The notes under the pieces were generated by a model. That model did no database searches, was not told the DNA's origin, and saw only the letters and a program-made list of their open reading frames with translations. The translations under genes were made by a program, and so were the position numbers. 64,000 nucleotides of DNA, from the NCBI GenBank assembly GCA_030390025.1, contig CM059432.1:37140001-37204000 (forward strand), written 5' to 3'. Shown here in pieces: positions 3,193 to 64,000 of this stretch (positions are counted from its first letter, which is position 1; the number at the start of each line of letters is the position of its first letter). This DNA comes from Squalus acanthias. Its lineage: Eukaryota.

Positions 3193-3354
3193 AGGAATTT
3201 TCCCATGTGAGGGAGGAGGTGCCAGTTGAACTGGTGGAGGCGCATGTGAAGAAGGTACAGGAGATGGCTCGGTCTTCTGGGAAAGTGGATCCTTCCTATG
3301 GTCTGGAAAACAGTGGCATTGCAGGCACTGCTCCGGAGGAACCAGAGAAAACTG
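3193..3354 (+). CDS. SMARCC1: SMARCC1 (BAF155) internal coding exon, region following the SANT domain
   Basis: ctctttgcAG acceptor and G|GTAAGT donor; 162 nt, phase 1 to 1. Encodes [54 protein letters not shown], matching my recollection of vertebrate SMARCC1 ([39 protein letters not shown]) better than SMARCC2. Confidence 0.93.
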
Positions 3355-17489: not shown

Positions 17490-18230
17490 TTTTTTTTGTT
17501 CTTGGGATGTGGGTGTCGCTGGCAAGGCCAGCATTTGTTGCCTATGCCTTGAACCGCTGCAGTCAGTGTGGTGAAGGTACTCCCACAGTGCTGTTAGGAA
17601 GGGAGTTCCAGGATTTTGACCCAGCGACGATGAAGGAACGGCGATATATGTTCAAGTTAGGCTGCTGTGTAAATTGGAGGTGGTGGTATTCCCATGTGCC
17701 TGCTGCTCTTGATCATCTCGGTGGTAGAGGTTGCGGGTTTGGGAGGTGCTGTCGAAAAATCCTTGGCAAGTTGCTGTAGTGCATCTTGTAGATGGTACAC
17801 ACTGCAGCCATGGTGCGCCAGTGGTGGAGCGAATGAATGCTTACCGTGATTTCCATATAGCTGAACATGGGAATGTGAGTAGCCCCTCGAGCCTGTTCCG
17901 CCATTCAATGAGATCATGGCTGATCTGTGACCTAACTCCATATAACTGCCTTTGCTCCAAATCCCTTAATACATTTGGTTAAAAATGATCTATTAATTTC
18001 AGATTTAAAATTAACAGTTGACTTCGCATCAGTTGCCGTTGCGATAGTGTTCCAAACTTCTACCACCCTTTGTGTGTAGAAATGTTTCCTAACTTCACTC
18101 CTAAACGGTCTAATTTTTAGGCTATGCACCCTTCCCCAACCAGCAGAAATAGCCTCTCTCCTCCTCTCCCCCCTCTCTCTCTCTCTCTCTCTCTCCCCCC
18201 CCCTCCTCCTCTCTCTCTCCCCCCCTCCTC

Positions 18231-18294
<64 letters not shown>

Positions 18295-18314
18295 TCTCTC
18301 TCTCCCCCCCTCCT

Positions 18315-18365
<51 letters not shown>

Positions 18366-19160
18366 TTCTCCTCTCTCTCTTCTCTCTTCCCCCTCTTTCT
18401 CTCTCTCTCTCCCCCCTCTCCTCTCTCTCTCCCCCCTCCTCTCTCTCTCTCCCCCCTCCTCTCTCTCTCTCCCCCCCTCCTCTCTCTCTCTCCCCCCTCC
18501 TCTCTCTCTCTCCCCCCCTCCTCTCTCTCTCTCCCCCCCTCCTCTCTCTCTCTCCCCCCCTCCTCTCTCTCTCTCCCCCCCTCCTCCTCTCTCTCTCCCC
18601 CCCCTCCTCTCTCTCTCTCCCCCCCCTCCTCTCTCTCTCTCCCCCCCTCCTCTCTCTCTCTCCCCCCCTCCTCTCTCTCTCTCCCCCCCTCCCTCTCTCT
18701 CTCTCTCTCCCCCCCTCCCTCTCTCTCTCTCCCTCTCCCTCTCCTCTCTCCTCTCTCTCTCTCTCCTCTCCTCTCTCTCCTCTCCTCTCTCTCTCTCTCT
18801 CCCCCCTTCCCCCTTAAAATCTTGGATCAAATCACTATTCACCTTGTAAATTCCAGGGAATACAATCCTAGTTTGTGTCGTCTTTCCTCGTAATTTAACC
18901 CCTGGAGTCCAGATATCATTCTGGAAAATCTATGCTGCACTCTCTCCAAGGCCAATATATCCTTCCTAAGGTGTGGTGCCCAGAACTGCTCACAGTACTC
19001 CAGGTGTGGTCTAACCAGGGCTTTGTATAGCTGTAGCATGACTTCTACCCTCTTTATTCTAGTCTTCTAGATATAAACGCCAGCATTCCTTTAGCGTTTT
19101 TGATTATTTTCTGTATTTGTCCATGACATTTTAATGATCTATGTACCTGGACCCCCAGTT
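17490..19160 (-). mobile_element. LINE 3' fragments (17490-17840 same family as 13432-15130; 17870-19160 CR1)
   Basis: Minus-strand peptides AAVCTIYKMHYSNLPR, LQLYKALVRPHLEYCEQFWAPHLRKD, HFYTQRVVEVWN. Confidence 0.85.
18153..18814. repeat. ~660-bp pure C/T low-complexity tract
   Basis: Mixed (CT)n and C-runs with no purines on the + strand; the 241-aa ORFs on both strands are artefacts of it. Confidence 0.97.
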
Positions 19161-19309
19161 GCTGATACTGACACATCTTGCTCTTCTCATTTAGGATTTA
19201 TCCATCAGTGAGGTGACAGCACCAACAACAGCTCTTTCCAAATCTTAATGCGCAAATTCAAACGGAACCAACCAACATATAAGCAATATAAGTGCAAATA
19301 GAATAATAC

Positions 19310-19550
19310 CAAAGCAAAATACTGCAGATTCTGGAAATCTGAAATAAAAACACAAAATGCTGGCAATACTCAGCAGGTCAGGCAGCATCCGTGGAGAGCA
19401 AGAGAGTTAGCGTTTCAGGTCAATGACCTTTCATCAGAACTGGAAAAAGTTAGAGATGTAACAGGTTTTAAGCAAGGGTGGGGGAGGGGACGAAAGAACA
19501 AAAGGGAAGGTCTGTGATGGGGTGGAAGGCACGAAAGATTAAATGACAAT
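19310..19550 (-). mobile_element. Penelope pLTR fragment (family B) with a degenerate hammerhead
   Basis: Minus strand 19441-19405 reads AGTT CTGATGA A AGGTC att GACCT GAAAC GCT AACT, next to the recurrent cagcattttgtgtttttatttcagatttccag tail. Confidence 0.7.
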
Positions 19551-20001
19551 AGAACGAAGATGCCTTTTTTTTACACTGGGGACTAAATTATACAGATCAT
19601 AAAGTCACAGCTTTGATCTCTGATCTGTGCTGTTGGCAGAAGAGCTACAATTGGCTTCCCTACAAATGGGCTTGGCAGGGGGAACGTCAACAAGGCTTCT
19701 CGCTCCTGATTGTCCACTGACCGTTGCTGTAAGTTTGCAGTTCTGGATATTGGTGTGATGACCATCATGGTCTGAAAGCCTGCCATTCCTTACCATGTAG
19801 ATTCATGCCAGTACCTATGTGTCTTCAGCAAGAGATGATTGGAAGGGTTAAACAGCTATTCCAACATTGGTTTTCAAAAAGAGGAAGTGAAGTGTGGCAC
19901 TTGGGTGCTCTCTCTTAAGTAAGGGGAATGCAGTCAGTATTTGGAATCATAGCAATTATTGTACGAAATATTGAAATGTTTTAATTTTGTTTCTTAAGCA
20001 G

Positions 20002-20060
20002 CAGATGTTGAAGAGGAAAAAATGGAAACTCAGGAATCTGAAGGGCAAGAACCAGAAAAA
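20002..20060 (+). CDS. SMARCC1: SMARCC1 short coding exon, acidic linker
   Basis: Pyrimidine tract followed by AAG-CAG-CAG (start could be 19999, 20002 or 20005, all in frame); donor AAA|GTAAGT; phase 1 to 0. Encodes (A)DVEEEKMETQESEGQEPEK, similar to human GAEEEKMEADPDGQQPEK. Too short for the ORF track. Confidence 0.85.
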
Positions 20061-20149
20061 GTAAGTGAAATAGTTTTCTGCGCACTAATGGGGGAGTGGC
20101 AGGATGATATGCAATTCTGGTGCTGAGCCCTGTGTGCTGAAGGAAAGAG

Positions 20150-20570
20150 AAGTTTGTATAGCACCTTTTTATAGTGACAAAACATCCCAAAGTACTTGAT
20201 GCAGTGAATTATTTTTTTAAGTGCTGTGACTATTATGAATCCATTCTTACCCAAGGGAATGACATACGAGCAGCCATCAAATGCATGACCAGTTAATCTG
20301 TTTTTGGTGCTATTGTTTGAGGGATGGATGTTGGCCACGCAAGTGAGAATTCCTTGCTCCAGTGTCATGGGATCTTCAAACATCTAACGATACAGACAAA
20401 TGAGACCTTGGTCTGGAGTCTCATCTGAAGAAATGCTCCTCAGACAATGCAGCACTCCTTCAGTACTGCATGGGAGTGTCAGCCTGGATTATGCACTCAA
20501 GGCTTGATGTGGGGTTTATAACCCACAAACCTCTGACCTGACGGCAAGAGTGTTATGACCCTAGCAAATG
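20150..20570 (-). mobile_element. DeuSINE/SacSINE1-like SINE, decayed
   Basis: Homologous to 37968-38402 (ttgtatagcacc..., gcagcactccttcagtactgca, tRNA-like head at the right end). Confidence 0.6.
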
Positions 20571-20815
20571 TGACACGGAAGCTGATTGTCTCCGCCTGGA
20601 AGGTGAAGAAAAGCACATGGGGAAGCGAGGAGTCTCATTGGTAGATAGCAGTTATGCATTTCCCAGCAGCTGATGAGGGTATGGATCCGCAAATTTTTTG
20701 CAAGTGATTAATGTACTTCCAAGCTCCTGTGCTGTTGTGTGGTTGAGGTGCTGTGCAACAGCCAGCTATCTTCCATCTGGAGAGAAAATTCTGGAGATGT
20801 TTCATCACCAAGACC

Positions 20816-21590
20816 ACCTATTTTCATCTCCATATTATCCGCCCGTCTCAGCCTATCTGCAGCTAAAACCCTCGTCCATGCTTTTGTTACCTCCAGACTC
20901 GACATTTCCAATGCTTTTGTGGCCAGCCTCCCATGTTGCACCCTGCATAAATTTGATCATTTAAAACCCCACTGCTTGTATCCTAACTTGCACCAGGTCC
21001 CATTAACCCATCACTCCTGTGCTCGCTGATCTACAATGAACCCCTCAAATTTACAATCCTCATCCTTGTGTTCCAATCTCTCCCTGGTTTCGCTCCTGCC
21101 GCTCAACAACCTTCTGAGAACTTTCCTCCCACTGTCTCATCATGCATCCCCCACTTCTTTCACCCCACCATTTGTGGTCGATCCATCAGCTATCTAGGCC
21201 CTAAAATCTGTAATTCTCCCTCTAAATCTGTCCACCTCTCTTCCTTTTAAGACGCTCCTTAAAATCATTTTTTTCCCTCCAATGTCTGCTTAAAAAACAA
21301 AATTAAAACATTTCAATATTCTGCACAATAATGGCTGCCATTCCAAATACTGACTATATTCCCCTAACTTCGAGCACCCAAGAGCCACACTTCATTTCCT
21401 CTCTTAGGAAACCAATGTTGAATAGCTGCGATCTATTTAACCCTTCCAATCATTTCCTATCTCTTTGACTAAGCTTTTGGTTACCTGTCCCAGCGTCTCC
21501 TCCTTTAGCCCTGTCAATTTTTGTATGATTACGCTCCTGTGAAGCTCCTTGGGATGTTTTACTACGTTAAAGATGCTATATAAACAAAAC
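20816..21590 (+). mobile_element. L2 LINE 3' fragment, interrupted at 21266-21453
   Basis: LSLSAAKTLVHAFVTSRLD peptide; L2 tail gacgctccttaaaa|cctatctctttgactaagcttttgg...bridges the insertion and ends ...gatgctatataaa. Confidence 0.85.
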
Positions 21591-21961
21591 AAGACCTTGG
21601 CAGAGGCCTGCGAGTAAGTTGCCTGGCCTAGGTGAGAATGTCTCATTTCTTGATGAACCCTGAAATAGAATTACATACAAATAACATGGAAGCAGGCCAA
21701 TGAGCCCAGCCAGTCCATGTTGTTTATCCTCCACACAATACTCCTAATCCCTTGTGGCCACCCTGTTCCTTTATACCTTTTATCCCCTTTTCCTTCAGCC
21801 ACTTAGCTAATCTATTCTTAAATGTTGACGTGGTCTCTGCTTCATTCACTAGCTCCAGTACTGCATTCCACAGCCTCAACCATCTGGTATAAAAGAAAAT
21901 TTCTTCTATTCTCTGTCCTAAATCTGTGACTGTAACCTTGGTGCACTACCTATCCTTGTCC

Positions 21962-21962
<1 letters not shown>

Positions 21963-22036
<74 letters not shown>
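21963..22036. repeat. (CT)n microsatellite about 100 nt upstream of the 22136 acceptor
   Basis: Perfect TC dinucleotide run. Confidence 0.97.
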
Positions 22037-22037
<1 letters not shown>

Positions 22038-22135
22038 AGCCTTTTACAAGGTTGAGCAACAATCATCCTCCAATGCAGACAAGGAAACCTGACCAGGGAG
22101 TTGCGTATTCAACAGACATGTTTGCCTTTTACTAG

Positions 22136-22262
22136 GTAGAAAACAAAGAGGAGACCGAAGCAGCTTGCGAGAGTACAGAGAAGATGCAAGTCCCATCTCC
22201 CAAGGAGCTGGCATCTGAGAAACCCATGGAAGGGGAAACTGCTAACACGGATATTAAACCAG
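22136..22262 (+). CDS. SMARCC1: SMARCC1 coding exon, acidic linker
   Basis: tttgccttttactAG acceptor, CCAG|GTAGGC donor; 127 nt, phase 0 to 1. Encodes VENKEETEAACESTEKMQVPSPKELASEKPMEGETANTDIKP; phases bridge the flanking exons. Confidence 0.8.
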
Positions 22263-25200
22263 GTAGGCGCAAGAAGTGCCTTTCATGCAGTGAGTTACTT
22301 CGAAATGGATGGCGAGCAGGAGGCCAAATTGAATGTTGTCAGTTGTGCAGTGAGTGTAAAGGTTTTGTAAACAGGGAGGGAAGAGACAAAGTGCAGGGGT
22401 TTAAGGAGAAAGTTCACGAGCTGACTAAGCGATCACCTGGTATTGCTCAGTGTCGAGGACTGGAGGGTGCATGCTAGTGTGCAAGGCTGGAGGAGATGCT
22501 ACAGTCGGTGAATTGTGATCTGTCGTAGGTTGAGCTGGGAGGCTGGCAGGAAATTATGGAGAAGTTCAAAAGTGAGCTGATTAAGGCATGGAAGTGGATT
22601 GGAGCAATCTGGTAATGAACAGCTGTGGGGGGTGGAGAAGTTCGTTTGGGGTCGAGCAGTGCACCAAATTTCTGCGCATCATGATTGAGCCTGAGGTTGG
22701 TGCTGGGAGGCCACGCCAAAGGCATGCAGGTGCTGCCAGGAGCTGAAAATAGCTTTGATACTGAATATCATTCTCGTCCGGTTCCACAAAATAAAGCTTG
22801 GTCGCTTCTTCGTGTTAGGCACTTAGAAAAGAGGTTAATCTAATGTCCTTTATTCATCAGCAATGATCTCAGTATTGCTCTTTTAAAAAAAAAAAACTTC
22901 CTTAGAGTAATAAGGTAACCTTTAGTAGTTTTAAAATGGGGTAGACGTGTGCTGTCATAGCGGGTGGGGTGTTCAACCCTTAGGAATGGGGTGGGGAGGT
23001 TGGGGTCGTGTGCCACATTGTGAGTGGGCTGTTGATGAAGGCTAGATTTCAAATTTGCCTTGTGACTCGAGCATTTAAGCAAACTAATTCTGAAAATTAT
23101 AGGTTGTCTGAGTGTTGGCAGCACCATTTTGGGTCCGCAAGTTTGACAATCTCTGGCCTTAATCAACCCATCGAAGCAGCTTTTTAAAATCATGCAGGCC
23201 TGAGAAGCTCAAAAAGCTGAAGCAGGCAGTTCAAGGAACTTTACGTATACAAGGGCACAAATAGAAAACAACTGTTTGGTGCTGGCGGACTGAGTAATGG
23301 AAGCTCGTGGAGTGTCTGGTTTACTGGGTAAAAGTATTGCTGTATATATTCAGCCAAATAGACCAGAAAGGGTCCAGGTTTGATTTCTCAGCTGTGTGGA
23401 GTTGGTTGATCTCAGTCAGAACAGCAATGAGTATGCTGCAATTCCTCTCCTTGCTTCTGGGCTTTGAGATCGGGGATGGGAAAGTAGCTGGGGGGGTTCC
23501 TGATTCTGCTGTCTCTCCCTTGACTCCTGCTGTGTGCATCTGGTTATGACTGCATTGAACTTGGCCATCGTGCCCATCATGTTTCAGTAGGCTGGCACTC
23601 ACTTTAGGCTCAAGTGAGCAGTAACCATTTGGGCAAGGTACCCATGGAGCTGTCCCCCCAACAAGAGAAGAGTACGGTAGACAAGGGGTTATGGTACAGG
23701 ATTAGCAACCCAGAGCTCAGGTTGAAATTAATTTTGAATTCAAGCAATCTGGAAACTTGTGGGCTGGCACCAGAAAAAAATCTGCCACAAAAGCCCAACT
23801 GGTTGACTATTGACCTTCAGTGAGGGAAACCTGCCACTCCAACGTGCTCTGGCCCTACTTGTGACTAGCCCCATACTGCGTGGTTGACTCTTAATGTCTT
23901 CAGGGCAACGTGGGATGTGCAATAAATACTGGTTTTTCAGTGTCTGTCACATCCCAAGAATATGTTAGAGTTAACACCTTCAGGAGCAATGACAGAAAAC
24001 GGAGGGGAGATGATGAGTGCTGGAACATGCTCCCCCATTGCTTAGTTTGTTCCGACAAGCTGGAGGAACTCCAGCTGATTGGGACAGATTTTTTTTCCCC
24101 CAAGGTTCATGTGTGCAGAGAAAGATGATTGTTGCAAAGTGTTGTGACTTAACCTGACAAAATTCCAGTTTTAGTTAGCAAAGGGAAAGTGAAGAGATCT
24201 TTGTATCCTTCAACTTAAAAGTTTGCTTTCTAATTTTACAATTCATTCTGGCCAACTGGTACTTGAATCTGCAGAGAATATTGTTAGTCCACTGTGGGTT
24301 TAATCTTGGTGGTTTCCAATTATAGAATTAGAATCGACGGAAGTGAAATATATGATCGTAAACATCTTTAAGGACAGTTGATACAGTGCACTTATTGGGT
24401 GACCTCAGTTCTTCACTACTGTTTTCAAAACTGCTGGTCAGATGCAGTCTTGGCACAGATGTTCCATGTGAAGCCTTCTCCCCCTTTTAGTGATGACAGA
24501 CCAGTCAAACTGTGCAGCATTTTAAGATATTTCAGCAGTGTGTTAAATATTGCAACTTTTTTTTCACCTGTAGTTTCTCTTCTGCGGTATGAATGGGAAT
24601 GAAGCAATTGGAGAGCAGTTGCACAAAATGTCAGCTCGAGCTGCTCCTTAGCAGCAAGAAGCAACAGAAATCAAGGAAGGTTGAGGGAGACGTGTGTGCA
24701 AGTATTTCTTGGGATTCAACTTAGCTCAGAGTTCTCCATTTGTGGAATAACTGACCAGTGCTCACTCTGGTTTCCAAGTGTGGACGAGACATCAGAGCTT
24801 CGAAACACTCAGCCAGAGCTTTTTGTTCTCGCTGGGTGATGCTGGCAAGCCTGCATTTTTGCTCATTCCCAGTTGCCCTGAGCATGTGGTGCTGGGCCTT
24901 AAATATTGATTTTAGGCTACTTCAGAGGGCATTAAGGATCAACCACTTAGTTTGGGTCTGGAGTCAGATGCTGGTTTGGGTTAGCAAGTTGCTTTCCCAG
25001 AAGGATGTTAGTGAACCGGTTGGGTTTTCATGACAATCTGACCGTTAATCATTTTTCTTCTGGTGCTAGTCCACAAATTTCCAGATTTGTGGAATTCAGT
25101 TTCACAACCTGCTGAGGTGGGATTGGAATTCACAAGATCTGGATTGCTAGTCGAGTGACATAACCACTGCACTGCTACATCCCGAAGAGTCAGTGCCTTC

Positions 25201-62730: not shown

Positions 62731-63674
62731 AAAGTAATGTGGAGAACGGCTGCGAAATTGGCATTAAATATACAGAGCTGCCACAGCTAACAAAATAGTG
62801 TTAGGCTGGCTCGACTGAATGGCCTCCTACCTAAAACACACATGAATAGGTTTAAACACTTTATCTGTGTGTTCCATGAGTCCTATTCTCTTCACTCTGA
62901 CTGGGGGGAAGCGAAGGGGAAGTACATGGGATCTCTTTGATGTCACAGTGGCTCTACGATGACACATCTGTGATGCAAGTTTGGAATCAGACCCAACAAG
63001 TAGAATGAAGTGATGTACATAGAGCTGTGCTGCTGTGGGAAATAAAAGGAATTCGAGATGATCAAAAACTAGGATGAGTGCCCGACTCTAAATGATCAAC
63101 TCGCTGGAAGATGGAATGGTACAATTGAGAGAACATTCCTAAAATCTGCCAGTGAAGTTGAAGTAAAATAAACTAGTTTAAATTCCCTTGGAGTGAAGGA
63201 AAGCAAAAATGGAAACTATAGCCCTTAAACTCCCCGATGACCCAGTTGGTAAAGATACCAACTGTCGTACTGAACTGTGCAGAGCACAAGTTCAATTCCC
63301 AATATGTGCTCTGGCTGATTTAGAAGAGTAGCAAGTTGGTCTACTCCAACTGGTCTCCGCACCCCCAGGTCACAAAGTGGGGGGTGGGGGGGGGTCTGGG
63401 GGGGTCTGGTTTCTTGCTTCTGATTGCTGTGCAATGGTGTCTGACGTGGATGGGATTAGGTTTGGCCACACCACCAGTCAGGGTCGAATAACCTACCAGC
63501 ATGCAATGTCCAGATTTACACCAAGACTGGCCACTTGCTGAAGTTATTTGATGTCCCTGGCACCCTTGGAAGTATGCTCCAGCAAGGGTCTGTGCCTTTG
63601 TCGGGGAGAACATTGGTTTACACGCTCATTTGTTGGACAATGTTCATGTGTGTCATCTTTGCACTTTGTTTCAG

Positions 63675-63951
63675 CTGGAACAGCAGCGACAACAGCTGCT
63701 CACGGAGCGCCAGGCCTTCCACATGGAGCAGTTGAAATATGCTGAAATGAGAGCCCGACAGCAGCTGGAGCAGCAGCATCAGCAGCAGCAGCAGCAGCAG
63801 CAACAACAACAACAACAACAGCAGCAGCATTCGCAAAACACCCCCTCTGCCCCTGGAATGCAGCAGCTGGGTTCTATTGGTATGATGCAACAAGGTCCAA
63901 CACCGCCACCTCCTTATCCGATGATGCACCATCAGATGCAGCAACAACTAG
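63675..63951 (+). CDS. SMARCC1: SMARCC1 coding exon, end of coiled coil plus polyQ and Pro/Gln-rich tail
   Basis: ctttgtttcAG acceptor, CTAG|GTCAGT donor; 277 nt, phase 0 to 1. Encodes [35 protein letters not shown](Q16)[42 protein letters not shown]. Confidence 0.93.
63780..63827 (+). repeat. Coding (CAG)7(CAA)6(CAG)3 polyglutamine repeat
   Basis: 16 consecutive Gln codons in frame in the SMARCC1 exon. Confidence 0.95.
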
Positions 63952-64000
63952 GTCAGTGCAGTGTTCTTACATTGGTTAAATCAAACCCTTATTTCCTCAA

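Follow-up and report, generated by a model that had tools for sequence, protein, structure and literature searches.

The window analyzed here, a stretch of 64,000 nucleotides of the Squalus acanthias genome, contains part of SMARCC1, the gene of BAF155. An upstream coding exon (exon A, 3193..3354, + strand) is delimited by its AG and GT ends and by its translation, ends in phase 1, and gives a peptide that matches named shark and ray SMARCC1 proteins. It is separated by an intron of 16.6 kb from exon B (19999..20060, + strand), which runs from phase 1 to phase 0, encodes an acidic linker peptide, and is identified by its sequence, by protein matches, and by the X9 contig described below. Exon C (22136..22262, + strand; 127 nt, phase 0 to 1), recognized from its sequence, has a peptide that matches SMARCC1 of a ray. 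The region as a whole matches SMARCC1 of sharks, rays, and chimaera, and the identification of the gene is based on the match of the exon peptides to named SMARCC1 proteins and on the domain set of a close homologue. Further downstream, a SMARCC1 exon at 63552-63998 encodes a long polyglutamine run, and the Narcine protein has no run at that place.

Exon B ends at 20060 and may start at 19999, 20002, or 20005, as three tandem acceptor AGs (19997..20004, + strand) give exons of 62, 59, and 56 nt; the length and phase proposed in a preliminary description of this DNA, made from its sequence, were thus correct. The start of the exon is conserved to chimaera in protein comparisons, and the tandem acceptor looks conserved across sharks and rays, since a series of isoforms that differ by one residue is annotated in Narcine (three forms), Mobula, Hypanus, Hemitrygon, Pristis, Carcharodon, Heterodontus, and Heptranchias. 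Long CT-rich tracts lie in both introns around exon B (18150-18815 and 21960-22036), the second one 100 nt upstream of the acceptor of exon C. The single match to Rfam over 19000-23000 fell on the CT repeat and was weak (E 0.075), at the level of chance.

As had been proposed, skipping of exon B alone would shift the frame: translation would meet its first stop in exon C, at codon 27 of that exon, with further exon junctions downstream. Transcripts with a premature stop in such a position are expected to undergo nonsense-mediated decay (NMD). Exons B and C together have 189 nt and are in frame, and their joint skipping would drop 63 residues of the acidic linker. The peptides of both exons are present in all 34 chondrichthyan SMARCC1 proteins listed (of 53, in four clusters), none of which is the joint skip form, a count that weighs little against skipping because a frameshifted form is not listed and these species may be without the insert described next.

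An inverted copy of the acceptor within a dispersed repeat

In S. acanthias, the SMARCC1 intron downstream of exon B contains, in reverse orientation and as a single copy, a duplicate of the splice site that lies upstream of it in the gene. The source (arm 1, 19832..20024, + strand) was delimited by self-comparison and consists of the last 167 nt of the intron and the first 26 nt of exon B. The inverted copy (arm 2, 21265..21455, - strand) has 191 nt and was delimited by BLAST and by alignments of the repeat that hosts it; it is also spanned by a contig of a second organism (see below). BLAST aligned 19832-20024 on the + strand with 21266-21456 on the - strand at 80.5% identity over 200 columns (E 9e-46), which confirms the inverted duplicate that the preliminary description had reported. 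Its account of the extent of the copy was right for the presence of the intron end and the exon start, while the exon part, counted from the first acceptor, is 26 nt and not about 20 nt. In a global alignment the arms have 162 matches, 22 mismatches, and 16 gap columns, i.e., an identity of 88% when gaps are excluded and a divergence of 12% (13% corrected).

Two blocks of high similarity, both noted previously, are present in this alignment. The first, a perfect match of 26 nt (19967..19992, + strand), covers the pyrimidine tract together with the inferred region of the branch point, and the equilibrium fold predicts it to be fully paired, in a helix that starts at 19967; the second (19880-19910) is the block described as 28 of 30, with 2 mismatches. 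When the 27 differences between the arms were scattered at random over the 189 columns, a run of 26 nt appeared in 34% of the shuffles (P 0.34), so the perfect block is no sign of selection.

The copy interrupts an older sequence. A dispersed, LINE-like repeat occupies 20847..21264 (+ strand; 17 relatives of at least 80 nt in 464 kb, median identity 71%) and resumes exactly past the insert at 21456..21584 (+ strand; 7 relatives, median 75%). The sister copies of this repeat, which have a (GTT)n tail, join 21264 and 21456 continuously in all four cases aligned, which identifies 21265-21455 as a clean insert of 191 nt and the exon-side arm, only 1.24 kb away, as its donor. Hence, the proposal of a local templated insertion into a repeat holds. 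The repeat had been called L2; it is dispersed and LINE-like, and L2 is a putative label, with no Pfam match in three translated fragments. We also considered joints skipping 21266-21459 in organisms B, C, and D as candidates for the empty allele, and rejected them: their sides, of 21-28 letters, derive from sister copies of the repeat.

The junctions, which are old, have about 1 nt of microhomology on the right and one unmatched base on the left, and the alignments of the host repeat reveal neither a target-site duplication nor a poly-A at either of them. The marks of class 1, LINE-mediated insertions (target-site duplication, poly-A tail, and TTTT/A target, as given in the accessible text of PMC5110952) are all lacking at the insert. 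The absence of target-site duplication and poly-A, the microhomology of about 1 nt, and the nearby unspliced template suggest that the copy arose through repair, by end-joining or template switching. Most likely, the old repeat suffered a break that was filled by synthesis, either on the opposite strand of the DNA lying 1.2 kb upstream or on nascent RNA, and then rejoined.

It is most improbable that both arms instead belong to a dispersed element of great age, or that arm 2 was copied from reverse-transcribed pre-mRNA by the LINE machinery. A search of the 3.7-Gb assembly with either arm, suggested earlier as a check of uniqueness, returned two matches at 81%, which are the two arms themselves, and nothing elsewhere, whereas a control repeat gave 687 candidates in the same search. 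The search missed a 95-nt partner with 76% identity, and therefore excludes only copies above roughly that level; this is what an old element would need, but arm 1 contains a true exon start that is conserved to chimaera, and the donor is single and identifiable within this limit. As for a cDNA, the sense orientation of the insert on the minus strand would suit a patch made from one, and templated sequence insertions in cell lines measure 191 bp in the median (accessible text of PMC5110952). The lack of poly-A and of target-site duplication argues against it, with the reservation that an RNA template that leaves no such marks is indistinguishable here from a DNA template.

To place the insert in its genomic context we used a background sample of 464 kb, i.e., the window and 200 kb on each side. 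It contains 23 pairs of sequences present in two copies, and 13 of these pairs lie within 5 kb of each other, against 2% expected by chance. Six of the twelve other close pairs were searched genome-wide: five, four inverted and one direct, had no dispersed copies that we could find, and one was a dispersed repeat. These five single-copy local duplicates, 74-87% alike, are at L008:6398-6452/7618-7667, L030:2904-3025/3374-3511, L027:4913-4999/5251-5339, L030:8432-8524/8816-8910, and L018:386-743/1306-1669. Adding the SMARCC1 pair brings the inverted ones among these single-copy local duplicates to at least five in the 464 kb, or about one per 90 kb. This figure counts pairs by copy number and distance, and some of those separated by short spacers may derive from old transposon ends or hairpins. 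Considering all copy numbers, 36 inverted pairs of at least 50 nt occur within 3 kb. Local templated copying thus seems frequent in this genome. As a rough extrapolation from one region, a density of one per 90 kb means that a genome scan should meet some pairs over an acceptor.

Other inverted pairs were noted in the region. The pair 51723-51786/52095-52158 was tried as a second case and rejected, as its two 64-nt arms, 95% alike, are the inverted ends of an element that is young and present in many copies, with 687 candidates in the genome, many of them 99% identical. An inverted duplication of about 2.9 kb, 98% identical and with arms that almost abut, lies at about 37396760-37402650 of G000:C8 (L046) and is either a recent event or an assembly artefact. 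A 598-nt inverted pair, 98.5% alike and 650 nt apart (L016, about 37037890-37039730 of G000:C8), probably corresponds to transposon ends.

Predicted pairing and inclusion of exon B

We computed the folding of 19800-21500 that the preliminary description had suggested, and a long duplex over the pyrimidine tract is indeed predicted. The arms would form 170 pairs, with helices of 26, 21, 19, and 16 bp, at -225 kcal/mol, compared with -348 kcal/mol for a perfect copy. At equilibrium the tract is predicted to pair with arm 2 with a probability of about 1.0, and the acceptor AGs lie in a weakly paired spot (P 0.4-0.9). A duplex over the acceptor region is therefore physically possible in this model, and stable pairing over a splice signal, as predicted here, is one of the properties of structures that regulate splicing. 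In the long intron upstream of exon B there is also a 308-nt inverted pair (14588-14895/17548-17843, 82% alike) whose predicted duplex, at -479 kcal/mol, is stronger than that of arms 1 and 2.

Such a duplex could matter for splicing. On part of the nascent transcripts it might hide the branch point and the pyrimidine tract, and so lead to skipping of exon B and NMD, or to the joint, in-frame skipping of B and C, in which case it would be a tolerated or kept tuner of the level of BAF155. The predicted helices, the near-certain pairing of the tract in the fold, and the stop that skipping of exon B places in exon C would all suit this explanation, as would the upstream intron, whose length suggests that it may be removed late, and, by analogy, the precedents of CHM and MANBA discussed below. 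We nevertheless consider it unlikely, for reasons that start with the transcripts and continue with the divergence of the arms.

The X9 contig of S. acanthias, which is presumed to be RNA, has 1920 nt at a depth of 78.8. Its positions 1290-1355 fit 19998-20063 without a single difference, and its overhangs of one and three bases are those expected from joins to exons A and C, so the assembled transcript includes exon B. It uses the first acceptor. The assignment of X9 to RNA is a program's guess, and the inclusion seen in it must be read with two features of the data: a skipped form is unable to map on 19500-21945, which is without exons A and C, and contigs drop rare forms, among which NMD would further thin a skipped one. 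The cover of X9 is without the core of arm 2 and the intron part of arm 1, and thus has no bearing on editing. Minor or NMD-hidden skipping of exon B would escape notice in this contig.

Editing by ADAR offers another way in which the duplex could act. It would be edited in unspliced RNA, and editing or partial pairing would shift the choice among the three tandem acceptors without any skipping. The long predicted helices with 8 A.C mismatches, the weakly paired position of the AGs, and the presence of three acceptors are compatible with this scenario, but the same series of one-residue isoforms occurs in rays and distant sharks, known there from proteins and not from introns, so the choice of acceptor seems to need no insert. 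Together with the lack of any sign of selection on arm 2 (see below), this makes it very unlikely.

Age and divergence of the arms

To compare the arms with those of relatives we used 20 runs, all of them contigs and none on record as RNA, of which 4 were aligned to 19500-21945. Arm 2 is covered by organism B alone, and its lack in organisms C and D is a gap in cover rather than an absence of the insert. The contig of organism B over 20435-21501 has 68 substitutions, with a net change in length of +3, and, as it spans the insert, organism B carries it; the insert is thus kept in at least two species, a point in favor of a tuner. The background divergence to organisms B and C is 6.2%. Since the arms differ by 12% (13% corrected), we infer that the insertion predates the split from these organisms, about two to three times over. 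An absolute date was also attempted, with the rate of 7e-10 per generation given in the accessible text of PMC10587355; applied to a divergence of 13% it leads to around 1e8 generations, which is implausible, so we retain only the relative age.

The differences between the arms give little indication of a maintained structure. There are 15 transition mismatches, 7 of which give G.U and 8 A.C, and 7 transversions. There is thus no bias towards wobble pairs, whereas a selected structure is expected to favor G.U, and this absence argues against a tuner. The differences are not clustered either (P 0.39 and 0.66). We looked for selection opening the acceptor end of the duplex, and rejected it (6 events in 25 exon columns vs 21 in 164, P 0.12; scan P 0.39).

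The rates of change of the two arms differ. The intron part of arm 1 evolved more slowly than its flanks in organisms B and C (3/167 vs 28/502, P 0.028), a point for a tuner, with P rising to 0.097 when the last 40 nt are left out and to 0.32 if the 4 unlisted changes of organism B fall inside. This slowness is the one result of these sequence comparisons to lean towards function, and ordinary constraint close to the acceptor explains part of it. For arm 2 the count is indirect: taking the 32 changes of organism C over 20435-21001 as those of organism B, about 36 changes of the latter are left for 21002-21501. One expects 29.8 if arm 2 is neutral, 21.4 if it changes at the rate of arm 1 (P 0.002), and 18.0 if it is frozen (P 0.0001), a comparison that draws on contig totals and not on listed positions, the changes of arm 2 being among 130 rows beyond those listed. 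In line with this, organism B has 12 more changed places than organism C by the same kind of indirect count, B alone covering arm 2. Arm 2 appears to drift near the neutral rate, which is hard to reconcile with a tuner.

Individual changes point in the same direction. At 19931, the base found in organisms B, C, and D can pair with arm 2, and the S. acanthias genome no longer has it; judging from this alignment, one pair between the arms broke without compensation in the lineage of S. acanthias. Organisms B and C have deletions of 7 nt and 1 nt in arm 1. Conservation of both arms with compensatory or wobble-keeping changes was not found, given the 7 G.U and 8 A.C mismatches, an arm 2 near neutral by indirect count, and an arm 1 that is mildly slow. 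The role in dosage control or as an editing target envisaged in the preliminary description is accordingly not borne out as a maintained one: there is no wobble bias and no excess in the perfect block, arm 2 is near neutral, similar inverted pairs are common nearby, and the transcript contig contains exon B.

Taking these results together, the feature is real, its origin ordinary, and a function unlikely. The probable explanation, in our view, is that of an old insert, made by repair in an old repeat and copied in inverted orientation from the end of an intron and the start of an exon of SMARCC1 itself, that has since decayed neutrally while the exon is still included. The copy would have been tolerated and fixed, and would then have lost about a third of its pairing energy. 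This tolerance may be a matter of timing: arm 2 follows 1.24 kb behind, and by the time it is transcribed the acceptor would already be committed to splicing. In unspliced RNA a duplex may nonetheless arise, which could undergo low-level editing and leave the mRNA unchanged.

As a neutral patch, the insert is of little import: it is one more old local templated insertion, notable for having a splice acceptor as its template. A more consequential history would be that the repair accident gave the shark lineage an antisense copy of the acceptor that was later kept as a cis-acting attenuator. In a share of the transcripts the duplex would arise while the 16.6-kb intron is still in place, so that exon B would be skipped and NMD would follow, which would tune the dosage of BAF155. 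On the present sequences this is distinctly unlikely. If inverted pairs of this kind occur at about one per 90 kb, hundreds of shark exons could have such a pair, and they would form a natural series to learn what length, perfection, and nearness a duplex needs to silence an acceptor. Were skipping to be shown, the locus would clearly illustrate how a structure that regulates splicing can arise, with a traceable origin, from one repair event.

Comparison with known systems

Our literature search, which covered accessible main texts, found no published report on this SMARCC1 locus concerning skipping and NMD, NAGNAG acceptors, or a templated insertion at a splice site. The closest parallels for its origin are the class 2 templated sequence insertions (TSI; TSIP when polymorphic) of Onozawa and Aplan, which, in the accessible text of PMC5110952, have 73-414 bp with a median of 191 in cell lines. 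Like them, the SMARCC1 insert is a short templated patch, devoid of target-site duplication and poly-A, with junctions that resemble end-joining. In contrast, their templates are distant, whereas that of SMARCC1 is 1.2 kb off and inverted, and its event is old and common to species. A TSIP is defined by a distant donor and by polymorphism in the population, and here the donor is 1.24 kb away and the insert is found in a second species. The SMARCC1 insert works like a class 2 TSI without being a TSIP by definition.

For long-range RNA structures the comparison is with stems that mask splice sites in Drosophila minigenes (Raker et al., PMC2724269), where RNA is cited as folding within about 60 nt behind the polymerase, and with the conserved boxes of BRD2/BRD3 (PMC10789245). 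As far as the accessible text of both papers goes, the SMARCC1 arms share with these boxes an intronic pairing over more than 150 nt that is able to mask a splice site. However, the boxes are defined by the conservation of both arms and by rescue with compensatory mutations, and arm 2 of SMARCC1 appears unconstrained. Alu elements that lie in introns as inverted pairs can also shift splicing (Lev-Maor et al., accessible text of PMC2533698). They too have inverted arms of 80-90% identity in the pre-mRNA, with possible editing and a possible effect on the neighboring exon; unlike them, the SMARCC1 arms do not form a pair of transposons, the splice site itself being one of the two, and editing is hypothetical.

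Finally, human intragenic inverted duplications have been tied to exon skipping at CHM exon 12 (PMC8756506) and MANBA exons 8-10 (PMC6549551), where, according to the accessible parts of these reports, the skipping was observed in patient RNA and the hairpin was predicted. They are the nearest precedents for a function and share several features with SMARCC1: an inverted copy of sequence next to an exon, lying in the intron downstream, a predicted hairpin, a proposed template-switch origin, and, in CHM, an out-of-frame skip. Yet the CHM and MANBA copies are new and perfect, have 1.75 kb and 13 kb, and include whole exons in these descriptions, whereas the SMARCC1 copy has 191 nt, is 12% diverged, covers the acceptor only, and leaves the exon included in one contig. 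This suggests that an inverted copy of 190 nt can be fixed 1.2 kb downstream of a frameshifting exon of a core chromatin-remodelling gene, and makes the SMARCC1 insert a useful contrast to the disease alleles of CHM and MANBA.
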